The position numbers and the translations under genes were made by a program. DNA of 64,000 bases. Origin: an uncultured bacterium. GTDB lineage: Bacteria > Patescibacteriota > Patescibacteriia > Patescibacteriales > UBA12465. The notes beneath the pieces are model-generated. The model saw only the letters and a list, made by a program, of their open reading frames with translations. It searched no databases and had not been told where the DNA came from. Positions 15,093-56,442 of the stretch are shown one piece after another. Within the stretch, counting starts at the first letter, position 1. The number at the start of each line of letters is the position of its first letter. The stretch spans positions 537,159-601,158 of the forward strand of contig OW818634.1 of NCBI GenBank assembly GCA_942492765.1, given 5' to 3'.

Positions 15093-15164
15093 AGCGGGTA
15101 ACGGGAATCGAACCCGTCTCTCGACCTTGGCAAGGTCGCATAATAACCACTATACGATACCCGC
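15093..15164 (-). tRNA. tRNA-Gly (anticodon GCC)
   Basis: The reverse complement GCGGGTATCGTATAGTGGTTATTATGCGACCTTGCCAAGGTCGAGAGACGGGTTCGATTCCCGTTACCCGCT folds as a cloverleaf. Anticodon loop is TTGCCAA; no CCA is encoded. Confidence 0.95.
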
Positions 15165-15188
15165 AATATTCTTTGCCTAACTAATTAC

Positions 15189-15275
15189 TGGTGCCGCGGG
15201 CGGGAATCGAACCCGCACTGTATCGCTACAACTGGATTTTAAGTCCAGCGCGTCTACCAGTTCCGCCACCGCGGC
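15189..15275 (-). tRNA. tRNA-Leu (anticodon UAA), type II with long variable arm, CCA encoded
   Basis: Reverse complement GCCGCGGTGGCGGAACTGGTAGACGCGCTGGACTTAAAATCCAGTTGTAGCGATACAGTGCGGGTTCGATTCCCGCCCGCGGCACCA. Anticodon loop is CTTAAAA. Confidence 0.95.
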
Positions 15276-15284
15276 GCATTTACG

Positions 15285-15670
15285 TGGAGATGATGGGAGT
15301 TGAACCCATGTCCAGTCGGTTTATCTAAATACATTTACAAGAGTAGACCGATTTTGTTGTTTGATTCCAACCATCAGAAACCGGACAAAAGCGGTTGGAA
15401 CGATCTTTCTGTTGTTTCGGCGTCCTTCCGGAAAGAGCGGAAGAAGCCTATCTTCATGTTGATGACACCGGAGAGACGACTATGAAGACTTGTCGTGTCC
15501 GATGGCTATGGCTTTATTTGTTAGGCCATAACTGGAGCATAGCTCGGAGTTAACCAAGTGAATGCTCTTGCCGATTTGGCATTTGTGTTTTTTTAGTCAG
15601 TTTAACGCGGATAGCTAAGCGCGTCTTGAATATCTAGAGAAAGATCCGGCTGTCGATGCCTTTCATCCCC
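15285..15670 (-). ncRNA. ssrA: tmRNA (SsrA), one-piece, ~386 nt
   Basis: The 5' GGGGATG pairs with the 3' CATCTCC-A, including the G3:U alanine identity pair. T-arm GGGTTCAACTCCC. An internal tag-like ORF ends at a UAA in a hairpin loop. Located 21 nt downstream of smpB. Confidence 0.9.
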
Positions 15671-30808: not shown

Positions 30809-30839
30809 GACCGCTTTTCTCAAAAGTGGTCTTTTTTTT
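30809..30839 (+). terminator. Intrinsic terminator for 30538..30786
   Basis: GACCGCTTTTctcAAAAGTGGTCtttttttt (one G:U pair in the stem). Confidence 0.7.
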
Positions 30840-31629
30840 ATTTACGTCGGCTAAATATCTCCCAAACATTCTTGAACAGAAAGGCGATAGTCATCGGGCC
30901 GATGCCCCCAGGAACAGGGGTGATGAACCCGGCCTTATCTTTAACGTCTTCGAAATCTACATCGCCTAAAACTTGGTCGTCTTTCTTGGTAATGCCGATA
31001 TCGATAATAACGGCGCCATCTTTAATCATCTCTTTCTTGATCTTATGTGGTTCTCCGAGCGCTGTCACTAAGACATCGGCCTGTTCCGAGCCATCTTTCA
31101 AAACAACCTTCATTCCTTTCTTTTCCAGAATATCTTTGACGTTCTTGCCGAAGACCTCGGAGTTATATAAAACGCAAGCTGTCTTTCCAGCCGGAGAAAA
31201 CTTAATATCTTCGAGACAGGCCAAGATAGAGGCCATAACTGGAGAAACGATATATTCCGGATGAAGCGGATGGAAACCATCGACATCCTTAAGAGGATCG
31301 ATGGCGGCGATAACTTTATCAGTATCGAATTTTTCCGGCAAAGGCAGTTGCACCAAGATGCCGTCGATAGAGGCGTCCTTGTTTAGGAAGCCGATGACAT
31401 CTAGCAACTCTTGTTCAGAAATATCCTCCGGCAATCTATAGGTATGCGTATCCACTCCGACTTTCTGGCCCTCCTTTTCCTTCAAAGAAACATAAAGTTG
31501 AGAATCCGCGCGTTCGCCCACTAAAATAATAGCCGAATTCGGCCTCAGGCCTTTTAGTTCGAATATATTCTTCGCTACCTTATCTTTTATTTTTTCAGCG
31601 ATCTTCTTGCCATTAATAAGCTTAACCAT
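30838..31629 (-). CDS. folD: Bifunctional methylenetetrahydrofolate dehydrogenase/methenyl-THF cyclohydrolase FolD
   Basis: LINGKKIAEKIK..., ILVGERADSQLYV, GILVQLPLP, and the C-terminal PVPGGIGPMT motif. Confidence 0.93.
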   Translation of the reverse strand: MVKLINGKKIAEKIKDKVAKNIFELKGLRPNSAIILVGERADSQLYVSLKEKEGQKVGVDTHTYRLPEDISEQELLDVIGFLNKDASIDGILVQLPLPEKFDTDKVIAAIDPLKDVDGFHPLHPEYIVSPVMASILACLEDIKFSPAGKTACVLYNSEVFGKNVKDILEKKGMKVVLKDGSEQADVLVTALGEPHKIKKEMIKDGAVIIDIGITKKDDQVLGDVDFEDVKDKAGFITPVPGGIGPMTIAFLFKNVWEIFSRRK

Positions 31630-31632
31630 ATT

Positions 31633-32877
31633 TTATTTAGTAGGAATCGGGAATTTAGCGCATAGGGCTTTAACCTTTTCCTTAAGATCATTTAGTTTTC
31701 CTTCATTATCCTTATTCATCAAAGCTTCATCTATATAGCTTACGATCAATTTCATTTCGGCCTCCTTCATACCCCTGGTCGTAACAGCTGGAGTCCCAAT
31801 TCTGATGCCCGATGGGTTCATCGGCGGATTCGGATCATCTGGGATAGTAGAGCGGGAAACGGAAACGCCGATTTTTTCTAGAATTTTTTCTGCTTCTTTA
31901 CCAACCGTCCCTTTACTGGTTAAATCAATTACCATCAAATGATTATCGGTTCCTCCAGAAATTATCCTATATCCGAGAGCGATGAACTCCTTGGCCATAG
32001 CCTGAGCATTTAAAATGATCTGCTTAGCGTATTCGGTAAATTCCGGTTTTAAGGCTTCACCGAAAGCGACGGCTTTGGCGGCTGTAATATGGTCATGCGG
32101 CCCGCCCTGCATTCCTGGGAAGACAGCGCTATTAACTTGTTTGGCATATTTTTCCTTGCACATGATCATCGCGCCACGCGGGCCTCTTAGGGTCTTATGC
32201 GTCGTCGTCGAGACGACATCAAATATCGGCACCGGGTTCTTGATCTGCTTGGCAGCGATGAGCCCGGCGATATGAGCGATATCGGCAAAAGTATAGGCGC
32301 CGATTTCATCGGCGATATCTTTGAATTTCTGCCAGTCAATCTCGCGGGAATAAGCGCTGAAACCAGCGACGATCATTTTCGGCTTTTCGCGTAAAGCGAT
32401 TTCACGAACCTCATCCATATCAATCACTCCAGTTTCCGGATTCACCCCGTATTGGACGAAATTATATAGACGCCCGGAGAAATTAACCTTATGCCCGTGA
32501 GACAGATGGCCGCCATGATCGAGCTTCAGGCCTAAAACCTTGTCGCCCGGATTCAGGAAGGCCATATAGACCGCGGCGTTGGCTGGCGAACCGGATAAAG
32601 GTTGGACGTTAACATGCTCGGCCTCGAATAATTTCTTTGCTCTCTCGATCGCTAAGGTTTCTACCTCATCAACAATCACGTTGCCGCCATAATAACGATG
32701 GCCGACATAGCCCTCGCTATACTTATTAGTCAAAACGGTCGCCATCGCCTCCAGCACGGCCGGGGAAACATAATTTTCTGAAGCGATCAGCTCGATTTCC
32801 TCGTTCTGGCGCTTCTCCTCTTTCTCGATTATTTCCCAGACGGCCGGATCTTGGCTCTGTAAATGGTCGTATTTCAT
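31633..32877 (-). CDS. glyA: Serine hydroxymethyltransferase
   Basis: ELIASENY, the PLP-Lys motif TTTHKTLRGPRG, and the GTPAVTTRG motif. Confidence 0.96.
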   Translation of the reverse strand: MKYDHLQSQDPAVWEIIEKEEKRQNEEIELIASENYVSPAVLEAMATVLTNKYSEGYVGHRYYGGNVIVDEVETLAIERAKKLFEAEHVNVQPLSGSPANAAVYMAFLNPGDKVLGLKLDHGGHLSHGHKVNFSGRLYNFVQYGVNPETGVIDMDEVREIALREKPKMIVAGFSAYSREIDWQKFKDIADEIGAYTFADIAHIAGLIAAKQIKNPVPIFDVVSTTTHKTLRGPRGAMIMCKEKYAKQVNSAVFPGMQGGPHDHITAAKAVAFGEALKPEFTEYAKQIILNAQAMAKEFIALGYRIISGGTDNHLMVIDLTSKGTVGKEAEKILEKIGVSVSRSTIPDDPNPPMNPSGIRIGTPAVTTRGMKEAEMKLIVSYIDEALMNKDNEGKLNDLKEKVKALCAKFPIPTK

Positions 32878-32936: not shown

Positions 32937-33635
32937 TTATTTAATTTTTCTAAATAATGGCCCATACATATCTTCTTTTATATCGATTTTTAATTCATCT
33001 TTATCCACTCTTTCAATATAGTCCAAAGAAATATTATTAATAAGAGCCAATGGCTGTCTTTCGTTCCCTTCCCCCATACAAAGAACTGCTGCCGTCGCTA
33101 GGCTGTCTGCCACATCAACGCGAGAATATTTAAAAGGCCGCCCAAATATATCAAGATCTCCTTGGTATTTTTTAAGTCCTCTGAAGCCGGCATAACCCAA
33201 GGCTACGCCGGTAATTCCGGCTCGAAGAGGCAGGCAACGGCTATCCGTAATAATAACGCCGAAATTATTAAGGCGGTGCTTCTTCTTGAAATAACTTCTA
33301 ATCTTTGCCGCCGCCTTAAAACTGTCTTTGGGCAATAATATTATCGAACCATTGCCATTACTCTCGTCAACTCCAGCGTTAGCCATAGCTATGCCGTCCT
33401 TAATCGTCAAACACACATATTTAGTCTTTAGAACCATTTCACTTTCTTGCCTGATTATCGTTTCTTTAGTCATTTCATCTGCGCCATTAATAAATCGCCC
33501 TTCGGCTAAGGCGACAATCTTAGAAGTCACGACCAAGATGCTGTTCTCAGGAATCTTTTGTAAATATTCAGCGATAAAAAATAATAAATTTTCATTCGGT
33601 TTAAAAACCGAGGTTTTAAATGTTTTTATTTTCAT
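32937..33635 (-). CDS. CofE-like gamma-glutamyl ligase family protein (putative folate-related glutamate ligase)
   Basis: CofE/F420-ligase-domain motifs VVTSKIVALAEGR, ANAGVDESN, VIITDS, GVALGYAG and ADSLATAAVLCMGEGNE. Overlaps the upstream transporter gene by 20 nt and precedes glyA-folD. Confidence 0.7.
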   Translation of the reverse strand: MKIKTFKTSVFKPNENLLFFIAEYLQKIPENSILVVTSKIVALAEGRFINGADEMTKETIIRQESEMVLKTKYVCLTIKDGIAMANAGVDESNGNGSIILLPKDSFKAAAKIRSYFKKKHRLNNFGVIITDSRCLPLRAGITGVALGYAGFRGLKKYQGDLDIFGRPFKYSRVDVADSLATAAVLCMGEGNERQPLALINNISLDYIERVDKDELKIDIKEDMYGPLFRKIK

Positions 33636-34257
33636 ATTTTAGGAGATAAACGCCTAAATAAGATAAAGGCGTATATATGAATCCCATGCCGACTTTATAT
33701 AGCCACCAGGGAAGGCCGATCAACAGAATGGTCTTGAAGGAATATACGCCCGCGAAAGCCACGAACATGAAGATGGCCGTGTCTAGAAGCTGAGACCAGA
33801 GATTGGATAGATTGGATTGCAGCCAAAAAGCGCTATTATTAAGTTTTTTCTTAAAAAAGAAAAAAGCCGCAACATCTTGATATTCGGCAATCAAGTAGGC
33901 CAAGAGCGAAGCCAGCGACATTCTTAACGAAATACCAAAAATCGTATTAAAACTATCTTTAAACTTTAAGCCATCTTGAGCCCAGGGGACGAATAAAGAA
34001 ACGAGAGAATAAATCATAAACAGACAGATACTGATAAACCCGGCAAACACAAAATTTTTCGCCATCTGTTTTCCGTAGACTTGCCCGATAACATCAGTCG
34101 TGAGAAATACGAATGGGAAGAAAAAAACAGCCACTGATAAGTGTGTCCCAAAGATGAATGGCATTATTTTTAGACCCAACGTATTGGCGGCAAAAAGTGA
34201 AACTAGATAAAGCGTCAACGCTATAACTATCTTGAAATTAATTCTTTCTGAAGACAT
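33616..34257 (-). CDS. VUT-family (YhhQ/DUF165-like) vitamin/queuosine-precursor-type transporter
   Basis: About 6 TM helices with the family-typical segments FFPFVFLTTDVIGQVYGK and LLAYLIAEYQDVAAFFFFKK. Confidence 0.7.
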   Translation of the reverse strand: MSSERINFKIVIALTLYLVSLFAANTLGLKIMPFIFGTHLSVAVFFFPFVFLTTDVIGQVYGKQMAKNFVFAGFISICLFMIYSLVSLFVPWAQDGLKFKDSFNTIFGISLRMSLASLLAYLIAEYQDVAAFFFFKKKLNNSAFWLQSNLSNLWSQLLDTAIFMFVAFAGVYSFKTILLIGLPWWLYKVGMGFIYTPLSYLGVYLLKYENKNI

Positions 34258-34399
34258 AAAGGGGTTGATTTAGTTAATAAAAAACACCCCAAGGGTGCTT
34301 TAGAACAACTAAATAGCCCCTTGGTTATCAGAGTTTGATAGAGATGGCGATAAAGCCGGACCAGGTTGTAATGTTTTTAGTAATCAGCATAACATGACA
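34258..34399 (-). promoter_or_regulatory. Structured 5' leader with terminator and antiterminator alternatives (candidate riboswitch or attenuator)
   Basis: On the minus strand, the terminator is GCACCC-uug-GGGUGU plus UUUUUU (34298-34279). CCAAGGG (34324-34318) can instead pair with CCCUUGG (34295-34289). An outer helix GGGG/AUUUAGUU (34320-34307) pairs with AACUAAAU/CCCC (34275-34261) and ends 3 nt before the AUG. Confidence 0.5.
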
Positions 34400-34428
34400 A
34401 TAATAGCACAAAGCGGCTGTAAAGGCAA
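34400..34428 (-). promoter_or_regulatory. Sigma70-type promoter for the transporter/cofE-like/glyA/folD operon
   Basis: The minus strand reads TTGCCT (34428-34423), a 17-nt spacer, then TATTAT (34405-34400). Confidence 0.5.
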
Positions 34429-34488
34429 AAAAATCCCTCGGAATCAATTGAATCTAGTTTTAGACTAAGTTCAAAGAATCCAAGGGAT
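34427..34488 (-). terminator. Intrinsic terminator of ORF 34501..35025
   Basis: The minus strand reads ATCCCTTGGATTC...(35-nt loop)...GATTCCGAGGGAT plus TTTTTTT: a 13-bp stem with one G:U pair and one mismatch. Confidence 0.6.
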
Positions 34489-34500
34489 AAAGAGACGATA

Positions 34501-35025
34501 TCAAGGTATCGGTTGCGGAGACACGAGACGATAGTTGTTCTGGCCGCTCCAAATATGGCCACTCTCAAAATAAGACACGTGAACGTCCAGGCCACCTGCA
34601 AGCACATACACGCGAACCACGAAATACTTTGGTTCTCTGTTAAAAAAGCGGCGGCGTATCTTTTGAAAGATATTCAGTGTTCTTTCTGTTAAGAAAAAAG
34701 TTACGAAGCCATCTTGGCGAAGCTTGTCGCGATGTTGTCCGCAGAAGATAAGAATTTGCGCCATTGTCATAACGAGCTTACTCGGATTATTATTGATGCC
34801 AGAGAAAATCTCGAGGAAGGTGCCCTTAGCCGTCATCTCGTGGACAACGACATTAATCATTTTTGTGGGCTGACTAGGCTGGTCTAGCCAGAGATCCTTA
34901 AAATCAGGGTCAATCCAAACAATGTTCTTGTCTGAAGAGATTGTTCTTTTACCGTCAGATGCTTCAATTGGGAATGACTGGCCTTCGAACATAATTCGTG
35001 TTATGGCCGTAGGGGGTGTTTTCAT
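34501..35025 (-). CDS. Hypothetical protein (174 aa)
   Basis: ATG ORF with its own promoter-like element (TTGACC-N17-TAAGAT in 35040-35075, minus strand) and terminator. No motif recognised. Confidence 0.55.
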   Translation of the reverse strand: MKTPPTAITRIMFEGQSFPIEASDGKRTISSDKNIVWIDPDFKDLWLDQPSQPTKMINVVVHEMTAKGTFLEIFSGINNNPSKLVMTMAQILIFCGQHRDKLRQDGFVTFFLTERTLNIFQKIRRRFFNREPKYFVVRVYVLAGGLDVHVSYFESGHIWSGQNNYRLVSPQPIP

Positions 35026-35113: not shown

Positions 35114-36736
35114 TTACAACTTCTTAACCATATAGCTGTCTTTCTCCTTATAACCCAATTTCTTATAATAACCTCTAACTCCGACCCCAGAAATAACGGC
35201 TATCTTGGCCGCACCGTCTTTGGCGGCGACGCCCTCGGCTTCTTTCATTAATAACTTTCCTAAGCCGCTATGCTGCACCTTCTTGTCTCCGCCGACAGAA
35301 ACCAATATTCCATAAACATGAAGCTCTCTGACAATGGCTGGAGCAATCGGGCTATGCCTGTCTATCCTTAAACGGCAAAAGCCATAAAGAACTTTTCCAT
35401 CGCGGCTTTCGGCGCTGATAAAATATTCTGTTCCGCCTGAAGACGGATATTTTATAGTCCTGATCTTATAATTCAACTCAATCACTTGCTCTTTGGCCTC
35501 GCGGCAGCGGATACACTGGCATTTTACGCCCCGATCTTTCATGATTTGGCGCAAGTTCGTAATCTTATTGCCGGCAATGATTGATTCTCCTGGGATATCT
35601 CTAATCAATCTGATGATGCGGACATAAGGCGGAACGGCGGCCTTGCAATCTACAATCAATTCTTGAAGTTGCTTATCAGAATATGGCTTATACTTTCCCT
35701 GTTTATACCAGCGATATAATAAGCTGCCGGCCGTAACCACAGTCGGATAGAATTTTATCTGATCGGGCTGGAAGCGCTCATCGCTGAATAATTTCTTAAA
35801 TAATTCTAGATCTTTTTTCGGCGTCGCGCCTGGCAGGGCTGGCATGAGGTGATAGGTGACTTTGAATCCATATTCTTTGAGCAGCTTAGTCGCCGCAGCG
35901 ATTTCTTTAACGCCGTGTCCACGCTTATTCAATTTCAAAATCTTATCGTCTACCGCCTGCACGCCGATTTCTACGCGCGTCGCCCCTAATATACGCATCT
36001 CACGCACTTCATTTTCATCGATATAGTCCGGACGAGTTTCCAGGGTCAGCCCGATGAAGCGATATTCTGCTTTTTCATTCTTATTCTGCTCCCTGATAAG
36101 AGCCTTCTTTAATTCAATCAAAGACAAGCTCTTCGCGTAGGGCGCTTTTAATCCTATATCAAATTTATTTTCTCTTTCCGGGCGCTTAAAAACTAGCTTT
36201 CTTAATTTCTCATAATCATTGGCTGCCCGAAAGCAATTGACGATATACCAATATTTATATTTCGTGGGCAGGTAGCTCCAGGTCCCGCCGATGACGATCA
36301 GTTCAATCTTTGTTGGTTCGTGGCCATTGCTCTCTAGGGCTTTTAGGCGCAGAGCCACCTGCTTATAAGGATCGTAATCGCAGCGGATGGCGCGCATCAC
36401 GGCCGGCTCATTAGACAAATAACTAGCCGGAACATCTTTCTCGTGAGGACAATACGCGCAAGACCCCGGACAAGGATAGGGCTTAGTCAGGACAGCGACC
36501 GGCGCTATGCCAGACAGGGTCCTAATGGCGCGCTTGCGCAAGATATTTTCTAGGGCCACTATAGGAGTAATCTCTTTTTTGGACAACAAAAGGCGATACT
36601 CTTTCAGAATATCAGAATTCGGTATAGCTGCTAAGCTGTATTTTTTGCAGATTGTCCGTTTTCCAGCCTCTAAATCTTCCCTGTTCTTAAAAGCCGGGGC
36701 ATGATTCAGAAGCAGTTCTTTTATTGCTTCCCCCAT
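35114..36736 (-). CDS. elp3: Elp3-type radical SAM/GNAT tRNA U34 carboxymethyl-modification enzyme
   Basis: Radical-SAM Cys cluster PCPGSCAYCP near the N-terminus, a TIM-barrel-like core (RVEIGVQ...), and a C-terminal GNAT motif (VQHSGLGKLLMKEAE). Length and order match Elp3. Confidence 0.8.
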   Translation of the reverse strand: MGEAIKELLLNHAPAFKNREDLEAGKRTICKKYSLAAIPNSDILKEYRLLLSKKEITPIVALENILRKRAIRTLSGIAPVAVLTKPYPCPGSCAYCPHEKDVPASYLSNEPAVMRAIRCDYDPYKQVALRLKALESNGHEPTKIELIVIGGTWSYLPTKYKYWYIVNCFRAANDYEKLRKLVFKRPERENKFDIGLKAPYAKSLSLIELKKALIREQNKNEKAEYRFIGLTLETRPDYIDENEVREMRILGATRVEIGVQAVDDKILKLNKRGHGVKEIAAATKLLKEYGFKVTYHLMPALPGATPKKDLELFKKLFSDERFQPDQIKFYPTVVTAGSLLYRWYKQGKYKPYSDKQLQELIVDCKAAVPPYVRIIRLIRDIPGESIIAGNKITNLRQIMKDRGVKCQCIRCREAKEQVIELNYKIRTIKYPSSGGTEYFISAESRDGKVLYGFCRLRIDRHSPIAPAIVRELHVYGILVSVGGDKKVQHSGLGKLLMKEAEGVAAKDGAAKIAVISGVGVRGYYKKLGYKEKDSYMVKKL

Positions 36737-44134: not shown

Positions 44135-44206
44135 GGTGCCCATCGGGAATCGGACCCGAAATAACAGGACCACAACCTGCTGTGTTACCACTACACCATG
44201 GGCACC
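44135..44206 (-). tRNA. tRNA-His (anticodon GUG) with encoded G-1
   Basis: Reverse complement GGTGCCCATGGTGTAGTGGTAACACAGCAGGTTGTGGTCCTGTTATTTCGGGTCCGATTCCCGATGGGCACC. The extra 5' G pairs with C73; anticodon loop is TTGTGGT. Confidence 0.93.
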
Positions 44207-44230
44207 ATGCTTGTTTCTTGAGTTGAAACG

Positions 44231-44302
44231 TACGCCCGGGGGGAGTCGAACCCTCGTCTAGAGCTTAGAAGGCTCCCGTTCTATCCGCTGAACTACGGGC
44301 GC
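44231..44302 (-). tRNA. tRNA-Arg (anticodon UCU)
   Basis: Reverse complement GCGCCCGTAGTTCAGCGGATAGAACGGGAGCCTTCTAAGCTCTAGACGAGGGTTCGACTCCCCCCGGGCGTA. Anticodon loop is CTTCTAA. Confidence 0.93.
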
Positions 44303-56278: not shown

Positions 56279-56352
56279 TGGGCCCGACAGGATTCGAACC
56301 TGTGACCTCCACGATGTCAACGTGGCGCTCTAACCAACTGAGCTACGAGCCC
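56279..56352 (-). tRNA. tRNA-Val (anticodon GAC)
   Basis: Reverse complement GGGCTCGTAGCTCAGTTGGTTAGAGCGCCACGTTGACATCGTGGAGGTCACAGGTTCGAATCCTGTCGGGCCCA. Anticodon loop is TTGACAT. Confidence 0.93.
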
Positions 56353-56368
56353 CTTTATTATTCGATTG

Positions 56369-56442
56369 TGGGCATAGATGGACTTGAACCATCGACCCCC
56401 GCTTTATAAGAGCGGTGCTCTAACCAGCTGAGCTATATGCCC
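56369..56442 (-). tRNA. tRNA-Ile (anticodon UAU)
   Basis: Reverse complement GGGCATATAGCTCAGCTGGTTAGAGCACCGCTCTTATAAAGCGGGGGTCGATGGTTCAAGTCCATCTATGCCCA. Clean cloverleaf: anticodon stem CCGCT/AGCGG, loop C-T-TAT-A-A, and an Ile-like body. Confidence 0.85.

Follow-up and report, generated by a model that had tools for sequence, protein, structure and literature searches.

Short leader open reading frames (ORFs) precede mutually exclusive antiterminator and terminator helices in the trpL, thrL, hisL and pheL attenuators of Enterobacteria, in which termination follows when a ribosome at the stop codon covers region 2 of the RNA, and read-through when the ribosome stalls further upstream. In TnaC (tryptophan) and SpeFL (ornithine) the leader is conserved at the amino-acid level, and in the ermC/ermB, cat and cmlA leaders stalling on a very short conserved nascent peptide remodels the helices downstream. 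Folate and one-carbon genes are the targets of two riboswitch classes: ZTP (pfl) riboswitches, which control glyA, folD and other one-carbon genes and respond to a shortage of 10-formyl-tetrahydrofolate (10-formyl-THF), and THF riboswitches, which control folate transporters; both often act through terminator/antiterminator platforms. For the Patescibacteria, or Candidate Phyla Radiation (CPR), no described cis-regulatory mechanism was found in the literature searched. The element considered here lies on the minus strand of a 64,000-nucleotide (nt) stretch of the patescibacterial contig OW818634.1 (the window, to which all coordinates refer), where a 20-codon leader ORF and a set of competing RNA helices stand ahead of genes for a VUT-family transporter, a CofE-like ligase, GlyA and FolD. 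Comparison with related loci suggests that this leader is probably a ribosome-mediated transcription attenuator whose sensor is the conserved leader peptide and which is switched on by ribosome stalling at the motif TWS(G/S)F. The best reading of its relationships is that it represents a new family of leader-peptide attenuators, as no described leader-peptide, arrest-peptide or RNA family matched it in the libraries and literature searched.

The leader ORF (MLITKNITTWSGFIAISIKL and its stop codon; 34328..34390, minus strand) runs from an ATG at 34390 to a TGA at 34330-34328 and the next codon in frame, TAA at 34327-34325, is also a stop. Its peptide, which begins MLITKNITTWSGF, is encoded once in the window and was found ahead of folate/one-carbon genes in many contigs of uncultured Patescibacteria. 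No further leader copies were detected in the window, and two additional regular-expression matches, in loci L037 and L079, depart from the motif. The comparison covered 123 related loci (L numbers), 115 of them with a leader ORF, which gave 100 non-redundant leader loci including that of the window. An unbiased set of 28 genome loci was retrieved by homology to the VUT protein, independently of the leader; 19 of these, together with the window, carry a leader ORF with Trp at codon 10. A metagenome set of 95 loci was collected by scanning with a codon-degenerate DNA pattern, and all 95 matches are ORFs of 13-30 codons. The resulting family motif is M-L-I-[TN]-K-x-I-x-T-W-S-[GS]-F, with the Trp always at codon 10, and the consensus of the unbiased set is M-L-I-[T/N]-K-N-I-[T/K]-T-W-S-[G/S]-F followed by a variable tail. 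In the window the conserved part, the proposed stall region, comprises codons 1-13 (M-L-I-T-K-N-I-T-T-W-S-G-F; 34352..34390, with W10 at 34363-34361 and F13 at 34354-34352), and the tail comprises codons 14-20 (34331..34351), a putative spacer that would set the stop codon against region 2.

Within the 20 loci of the unbiased set, the sequence varies by codon position, with an information content of 1.52, 1.46 and 0.76 bits at the first, second and third positions, respectively. Among differing codon pairs, synonymous changes outnumber non-synonymous ones 344:168 at codons 9-13, and the ratio in the tail is 61:847. Ser11 is encoded by all four TCN codons in roughly equal use, and Leu2 alternates between TTR and CTN. 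This three-nucleotide periodicity, with its synonymous changes, argues that the stretch upstream of the helices is conserved as a peptide and not as an aptamer, and the comparison thus indicates purifying selection on the peptide sequence and not on the RNA. Two features of the codons just before W10 point to an additional constraint at the nucleotide level: codon 8 (34369-34367) has A as its third base in 19 of the 20 loci despite a varying residue (T, K, Q, R or S), and codon 9 is always ACY and never ACR. A dependence on codons read with MnmEG-derived 5-carboxymethylaminomethyluridine (cmnm5U), considered as a link to folate, was dropped, codon 8 being most often ACA. Eight variants of the peptide gave no match at E <= 10 to Pfam or NCBIfam, including the leader-peptide models of both, and nothing was found in the literature searched for leader or arrest peptides tied to folate or to the CPR.

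Downstream of the ORF lies the expression platform, for which the original prediction placed the promoter, terminator, antiterminator, third helix and ORF at essentially the positions given here, on the minus strand. Region 2, the 5' arm of the antiterminator (CCAAGGGGCU, 34315..34324), starts 3 nt after the stop codon (a gap first counted as 4 nt), so that a terminating ribosome would cover it. Region 3 (AGCACCCUUGG, 34289..34299) is shared between the two structures and pairs either with region 2 or with GGGUGUUUU of the terminator. The antiterminator has at its core the predicted pairing of CCAAGGG (34324-34318) with CCCUUGG (34295-34289) and proves stronger than first described: the extended pairing of CCAAGGGGCU with AGC-ACCCUUGG (34299-34289), together with an inner 4-bp helix, UUAG/CUAA, in its loop (34300..34312; assessed in the window only), reaches -16.9 kcal/mol, compared with -10.4 kcal/mol for the terminator. 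The latter (34276..34301) extends its GCACCC/UUG/GGGUGU core and U-run to AAAGCACCC/GGGUGUUUU (34301-34281), with stem 34301-34293/34289-34281, a UUG loop and a U-tract to 34276. A simple terminator scanner missed this hairpin, which is supported by ViennaRNA and by the homologues.

A comparison of the upstream regions of orthologous operons found both the conserved leader ORF and covarying platform helices, in keeping with the predicted competition between terminator and antiterminator. In most loci a terminator follows the ORF, at a distance from the stop codon of 21-36 nt in typical loci and mostly of 24-29 nt. In 57 of 73 loci, the sequence that pairs best with the terminator 5' arm plus loop starts at +1 to +7, counted from the first stop-codon base; in an alignment-free test of the same number of loci the antiterminator duplex had a median z of -3.05, with 74% of loci below -2. 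The pairing of regions 2 and 3 is kept despite diverged sequences, for example as CCAAAGGG/CCCUUUGG, CAGAAGGC/GCCUUCUG, GAGGGCAG/CUGCCCUC and AUGGAG/CUCCAU. In a plain MAFFT alignment, 69% of the antiterminator cells and 87.7% of the terminator cells are paired, double changes occur at all nine antiterminator pairs, and for either helix all 500 shuffles fell short of the observed value, both in covariation score and in percentage paired. A model-based alignment raised the paired fraction of the antiterminator to 75% and gave 62 double-change cells, compared with 26.9 +/- 3.9 in shuffles, with 0 of 500 shuffles reaching the score; the gain from covariance-model realignment was modest because helix registers differ among lineages. 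Slid controls were lower than the observed covariation for both helices in all alignments. Of the 75 sources with a leader that were searched, 63, including the window, gave exactly one match to the covariance model of the platform, and the nine VUT loci without a leader gave none. A repeated element or miniature inverted-repeat transposable element (MITE) was accordingly rejected, the hairpin sequence occurring once in the window with a single model match. A weak second match in L005 (7435-7497, minus strand; 27 bits, E = 0.006), downstream of folD, is probably an ordinary terminator. A trp-like region 1 within the ORF that would pair with region 2 was also considered and is not general (median z -0.47; only 13% of loci below -2).

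The third helix joins 34322-34306 with 34276-34259 (34259..34322), encloses the terminator and ends 2 nt before the AUG of the VUT gene. The helix, which had been predicted, belongs to the minimum free energy (MFE) fold of the whole leader, for which z is -4.5 against shuffles; the segment from stop codon to AUG reaches -29.9 kcal/mol. As a general element it fared less well, being significant in only 16 of 61 loci; it is present in the window and its closest relatives, L001 and L022, and recurs with unrelated sequences elsewhere, as in L046, L080, L075 and L114. The helix and the antiterminator have a G-run in common, and the start region of the VUT gene, which has no Shine-Dalgarno (SD) sequence upstream, is buried in the helix. 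On this distribution it appears to be accessory and not family-wide, and it may add a translational block.

How the position of the ribosome would set the choice between these helices was assessed in equilibrium MFE folds of 61 typical leaders in which a 31-nt ribosome footprint was masked. With the P-site on the last sense codon, the terminator forms in all 61 loci; with the P-site on F13, it is absent from 43; and with no ribosome, it forms in 37 and is absent from 24. In lineages that use SD sequences, the same peptide is coupled to helices that mask the SD, and these take the place of terminators. In long-tail variants the stop codon is followed immediately by an SD mimic (UGAGAAGG against the SD GAGAAGGA in L097; also L039 and L064). 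In variants with a short tail or a helix within the tail (L101, L120, L048, L043 and L092), the 5' arm of the OFF helix, which is an anti-SD or terminator arm, can be reached by a ribosome at codon 13, and masking the footprint at F13 frees the SD in the MFE fold of L101, L120 and L048. A stall near codon 13 predicts the ON state in both types of platform, whereas absence of translation predicts opposite outcomes; this points to stalling at the motif, with partial support from these folds, as the step under regulation.

The start of the leader ORF is closely tied to its promoter. The promoter scan of the window found a -35 box, TTGCCT (34423..34428), separated by 17 nt from an extended -10 box, TGcTATTAT (34400..34408; TATTAT at 34405-34400, TG at 34408-34407), with 9 of 12 matches overall. 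Since the -10 box ends 9 nt upstream of the leader ATG, transcription is predicted to start at about 34395-34392 and to leave a 5' untranslated region (UTR) of only about 2-5 nt. The arrangement recurs across the family: in 99 loci scanned for strong -10 boxes (at least five of six matches, with A2 and T6), such a box ends exactly 6 nt before the ATG in 23 and exactly 9 nt before it in 28, including the window, or 51 of 99 in total, compared with at most three boxes at any offset in a control window. The ATG-anchored profile places the -10 box at -12 to -7, and the base just before the ATG is a pyrimidine in 96% of loci. Promoter geometry therefore predicts that the short ORF is translated from a messenger RNA (mRNA) that is leaderless or has a UTR of 2-5 nt. 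Among the ORFs of the window in general, only 5 of 51 have an SD-like motif, and a TATAAT box is often found 6-9 nt ahead of the ATG (e.g., 44086 and 32877), so that SD-less and often leaderless initiation may be the norm in the source genome.

The genes behind the leader give the family its functional context. In the window these are the VUT-family transporter (33616..34257, minus strand; PF02592), the CofE-like, or FolC2-like, gamma-glutamyl ligase (32937..33635; PF01996), which overlaps the end of the VUT gene, and, by domain and family searches, glyA, for serine hydroxymethyltransferase (31633..32877), and folD (30838..31629). A TATAAT box 9 nt before the ATG at 32877 suggests that glyA may own an internal promoter. 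The closest homologues of the VUT protein, at 70-95% identity, come from Patescibacteria/CPR assemblies such as those of Falkowbacteria and Buchananbacteria. Over the 100 de-duplicated leader loci, the first downstream gene is VUT in 63, the CofE-like ligase in 11, glyA in seven (with folD next where the contig extends) and a gene for a cytoplasmic-looking NlpC/P60 protein in another seven. Single cases include a FolB fusion, a protein of the N-formylglutamate-amidohydrolase (FGase) family, a small NlpC/P60-like protein followed by dCMP deaminase, and a serA-like gene 421 nt downstream. These targets extend the folate/one-carbon context drawn from the window operon, and they suggest that the common denominator of the regulon is folate uptake and retention plus the serine/glycine/one-carbon node, and not the transporter. 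Reduced CPR genomes keep few metabolic modules, among them those for the uptake and retention of folate and for serine/glycine/one-carbon conversion.

The VUT and CofE-like genes overlap as a pair in 26 of the 28 CPR genome loci, and in L052 a canonical FolC follows VUT in place of the CofE-like gene. This pairing, together with the FolC of L052, indicates that the NCBI name "queuosine precursor transporter" is probably wrong for the VUT proteins of these CPR loci, which more likely take up folate or a folate precursor. The best NCBIfam match of the CofE-like ligase is TIGR04132, "putative folate metabolism gamma-glutamate ligase", with a score under the model cutoff, and the gene product is probably a FolC2-type ligase; a Chlamydia homologue of CofE has been shown to be able to replace FolC (PMC1971073). 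NlpC/P60 proteins stand directly behind the leader in L037, L058, L093, L110 and L113 (approximately 205-228 amino acids (aa)) and, in shorter form, in L032, L108 and L067, and are candidate gamma-glutamyl hydrolases acting on folylpolyglutamates. Behind the leader in L105 (920-1520) an unannotated protein is encoded that shows homology (E = 3e-10) to the C-terminal domain of the FolB fusion in L081 (689-1639), and this uncharacterised domain appears to be linked to folate by both fusion and shared regulation. In three loci without a leader (L017, L018 and L021) the VUT-CofE pair directly follows a gene whose product ends in ...GIEVK and resembles ribosomal protein L11, and its expression there would hang on a ribosomal-protein operon and not on an attenuator.

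Taken together, these observations suggest the following mechanism. A sigma-70-type promoter would start transcription at the AUG of the 20-codon ORF or within approximately 3-5 nt of it. When the ribosome reaches the stop codon, which the Ser-rich variable tail would serve only to position directly against region 2, it would cover region 2 and leave region 3 to pair with region 4, and the resulting terminator would end transcription before the VUT gene (OFF). When the ribosome instead stalls at or near T9-W10-S11-(G/S)12-F13, region 2 would be free to pair with region 3, and RNA polymerase would read through into the genes for VUT, the CofE-like ligase, GlyA and FolD (ON). That the stall would lie at the motif and depend on the nascent peptide is suggested by the invariance of M-L-I, K5 and T9-W10-S11-(G/S)12-F13 and by their fixed distance from the N-terminus, in loci whose VUT proteins are only 30-40% identical. 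An arrest at the stop codon, as in TnaC, was considered and dropped, as the last residues and the distance from motif to stop codon vary.

The regulon points to the serine/glycine/one-carbon-folate node as the source of the signal. It could be read through the supply of Ser- or Gly-transfer RNA (tRNA) at codons 11-12, with the nascent peptide increasing the sensitivity, or a small molecule could act on the complex of ribosome and peptide; the S11-(S/G)12 pair, the Ser-rich tail and an association of G12 with glyA speak for a tRNA contribution. A more far-reaching proposal, possible though doubtful at present, is that the 13-residue N-terminus is a true sensory arrest peptide that reads the folate/one-carbon state on the ribosome, either by binding a folate metabolite in the exit tunnel or through formylation of its own N-terminal Met. 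It would then be the peptide counterpart of the ZTP and THF riboswitches, widespread in Patescibacteria and coupled to several platforms.

Several points weigh against the attenuator model as outlined. Its support comes from sequence comparison and equilibrium folding, and the 5' UTR of the window is a prediction from promoter geometry. The metagenome pattern itself fixes many codon positions, so that peptide conservation can be judged without bias from the 20-locus set alone. With the P-site on F13, the terminator persists in the MFE fold of 18 of the 61 loci. Equilibrium folding of the SD-type variants predicted a switch in only three of eight; L039, L064 and L097 show none (L122 is ambiguous) and would need kinetic control to switch. 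Finally, the Ser-rich tail and the association of G12 with glyA fit plain codon-starvation attenuation equally well.

Codon starvation of the classical trp/thr/his type, in which scarcity of Ser- or Gly-tRNA at codons 11-12 and at the Ser codons of the tail would stall the ribosome, the peptide would be irrelevant and the regulon would be one of serine/glycine supply, is nonetheless considered rather unlikely. Its geometry is like that of trpL, serA and glyA are among the targets, S11 is near-invariant, and codon 12 is G or S. Ser accounts for 19.6% of tail residues in frame, compared with 5.4% in the proteins of the window and approximately 9% in the other two frames, and all six Ser codons are used. 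Furthermore, in 65 assessable loci, G12 occurs in 34 of 38 with glyA in the operon and in 13 of 27 without it (14 Ser), an odds ratio of 9.2 (Fisher p = 5e-4); the statistic ignores phylogeny, and the association could be a clade effect or a functional tie to glycine supply. Against this explanation, however, the regulatory codons form no tandem run (S11 is followed by S or G at codon 12, and the remaining enrichment is in the tail), and Gly is depleted in the tails, at only 3.2%. Ser codons near the stop would moreover stall the ribosome over region 2 and so lead to termination, and starvation leaves unexplained the invariance of M-L-I, K5, T9, W10 and F13, and the fixed place of W10, across such divergent VUT lineages.

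A second alternative is that the ORF senses initiation: a leaderless ORF would report the level of formylmethionyl-tRNA (fMet-tRNA), and hence of 10-formyl-THF, the product of GlyA and FolD, so that under low formylation the ORF would stay untranslated, leaving region 2 free and allowing read-through; in a variant of this idea, the 13-residue chain senses its own formylation. The leaderless layout, conservation from residue 1 with a fixed distance from the N-terminus to W10, and a regulon that makes and retains the cofactor needed for formylation are all consistent with it, and the antiterminator is transcribed first and already wins at equilibrium in the 24 loci that lack a terminator when no ribosome is present. 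CPR bacteria are also mostly without purine synthesis and so without the 5-aminoimidazole-4-carboxamide ribonucleotide (ZMP) signal that ZTP riboswitches use for the same regulon. The explanation is improbable, however: a conserved peptide is not required for sensing initiation alone, starts that are leaderless and SD-free look common in the source genome and are not peculiar to the leader ORF, and the terminator forms without a ribosome in the other 37 loci. The two-element variants L101, L120 and L048, whose OFF helix, either an SD mask or a terminator, starts at or just after the short tail, would also be OFF when untranslated, opposite to the terminator type.

The headline of the original prediction, an unclassified riboswitch in which a ligand (folate, ZTP, glycine or preQ1-like) would bind an aptamer formed by the approximately 80 nt upstream, with the ORF incidental, is already contradicted by the comparative data and is very improbable. 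The terminator/antiterminator platform and the folate gene context do resemble the THF and ZTP arrangements, and the upstream stretch had rightly been noted to match no known class: Rfam 15, run on the whole window at the gathering threshold, gave no match at the leader, including to THF-I/II, ZTP, preQ1-I/II/III, glycine and T-box. A search of 501 nt (34150-34650) at E <= 10 gave chance matches only (6S-Flavo on the opposite strand, 26 bits with a threshold of 85; rimP, 19 with 47; NsiR1, 13 with 39). However, RNAalifold detected no conserved pairs in the approximately 63 nt upstream of the platform among 19 unbiased homologues, the stretch varies as coding sequence does, and start codon, frame and stop placement are all conserved. 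Of the two options in "riboswitch or attenuator", the comparison thus retains the attenuator, and ribosome-mediated attenuation through the 20-codon ORF, initially offered as an alternative, becomes the favoured reading. Equally improbable is a free micropeptide acting in trans with the hairpin as an ordinary leaky intergenic terminator, since, although the 13 N-terminal residues are conserved and trans-acting leader peptides such as peTrpL are known (PMC7298713), the C-terminal half shows no constraint, the stop codon keeps its place next to a covarying antiterminator, and the peptide moves among different downstream genes and platforms, a pattern typical of a cis sensor.

Upstream, the transcription unit of the window is bounded by the terminator of the preceding gene, hyp174 (34426..34488, minus strand), a long-loop hairpin (34488-34433) followed by a U-run that overlaps the -35 box; the fold of 34500-34420 reaches -24.8 kcal/mol. 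The hyp174 gene itself, a 174-aa ORF at 34501-35025 that matches neither Pfam nor NCBIfam, separates the leader from an ELP3-like radical-SAM/GNAT gene (35114-36736). Most relatives have the ELP3-like gene immediately upstream of the leader, which suggests that the 174-aa ORF is a lineage-specific insertion. Elsewhere in the window a transfer-messenger RNA (tmRNA) gene adjoins two tRNA genes (15282-15670 and 15093-15275), and two more pairs of tRNA genes are present (44135-44302 and 56279-56442).

If this reading is correct, the leader would constitute a widespread, sequence-defined cis-regulatory mechanism of the CPR with a clear regulon. The peptide motif could serve as a key for finding that regulon in metagenomes, and unannotated proteins such as the cytoplasmic NlpC/P60 proteins and the domain fused to FolB are flagged by the leader as linked to folate. 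Because conservation of the peptide extends far beyond the needs of codon starvation, it may join the small group of metabolite-sensing nascent chains represented by TnaC and SpeFL, and if it proved to be an arrest peptide that senses a ligand or formylation, the leader would move towards a new class of sensor. With only 13 residues, the motif is suited to toeprinting and cryo-electron microscopy.

Compared with described attenuators, the patescibacterial leader is closest in layout to the trpL type, sharing the short ORF ahead of exclusive helices, the masking of region 2 by a ribosome at the stop codon and a leader of approximately 14-21 codons, in which the presumed stall codons 10-13 resemble the Trp codons 10-11 of trpL. 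It differs in having no run of regulatory codons and a peptide conserved residue by residue across distant lineages, in its predicted leaderless mRNA, in the absence of a general region 1-region 2 pairing, and in targets that belong to folate and one-carbon metabolism and not to one amino-acid pathway; nor does it match any Pfam or NCBIfam leader. With TnaC and SpeFL it shares amino-acid-level conservation, an invariant Trp and a stall (predicted here) that alters downstream transcription. Those leaders, however, stall the ribosome at the end of the ORF or close to it and act through Rho-dependent termination, whereas the patescibacterial motif occupies codons 1-13, lies 1-17 codons from the stop codon and would act on an intrinsic terminator or an SD mask; the sequences are not similar.

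The resemblance to the ermC/ermB, cat and cmlA leaders lies in the very short conserved nascent peptide whose stalling would remodel downstream helices, and the SD-masking variants L039, L097, L101 and L120 have the same layout as erm-type leaders. These leaders sense ribosome-targeting antibiotics and control resistance genes, whereas the patescibacterial family is associated with cofactor and amino-acid metabolism and would act mostly on transcription termination. A leaderless short ORF that serves as first cistron and attenuator is also known from the mycobacterial polycysteine ORFs (bioRxiv 10.1101/834739), which respond to metabolites through runs of Cys codons, encode peptides that are not otherwise conserved, and belong to another taxon and another regulon; the patescibacterial leader ORFs contain no run of Cys codons. 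In function, the nearest analogues are the ZTP and THF riboswitches, in which the sensor is an RNA aptamer, whereas in the patescibacterial leader it would be a translated peptide.

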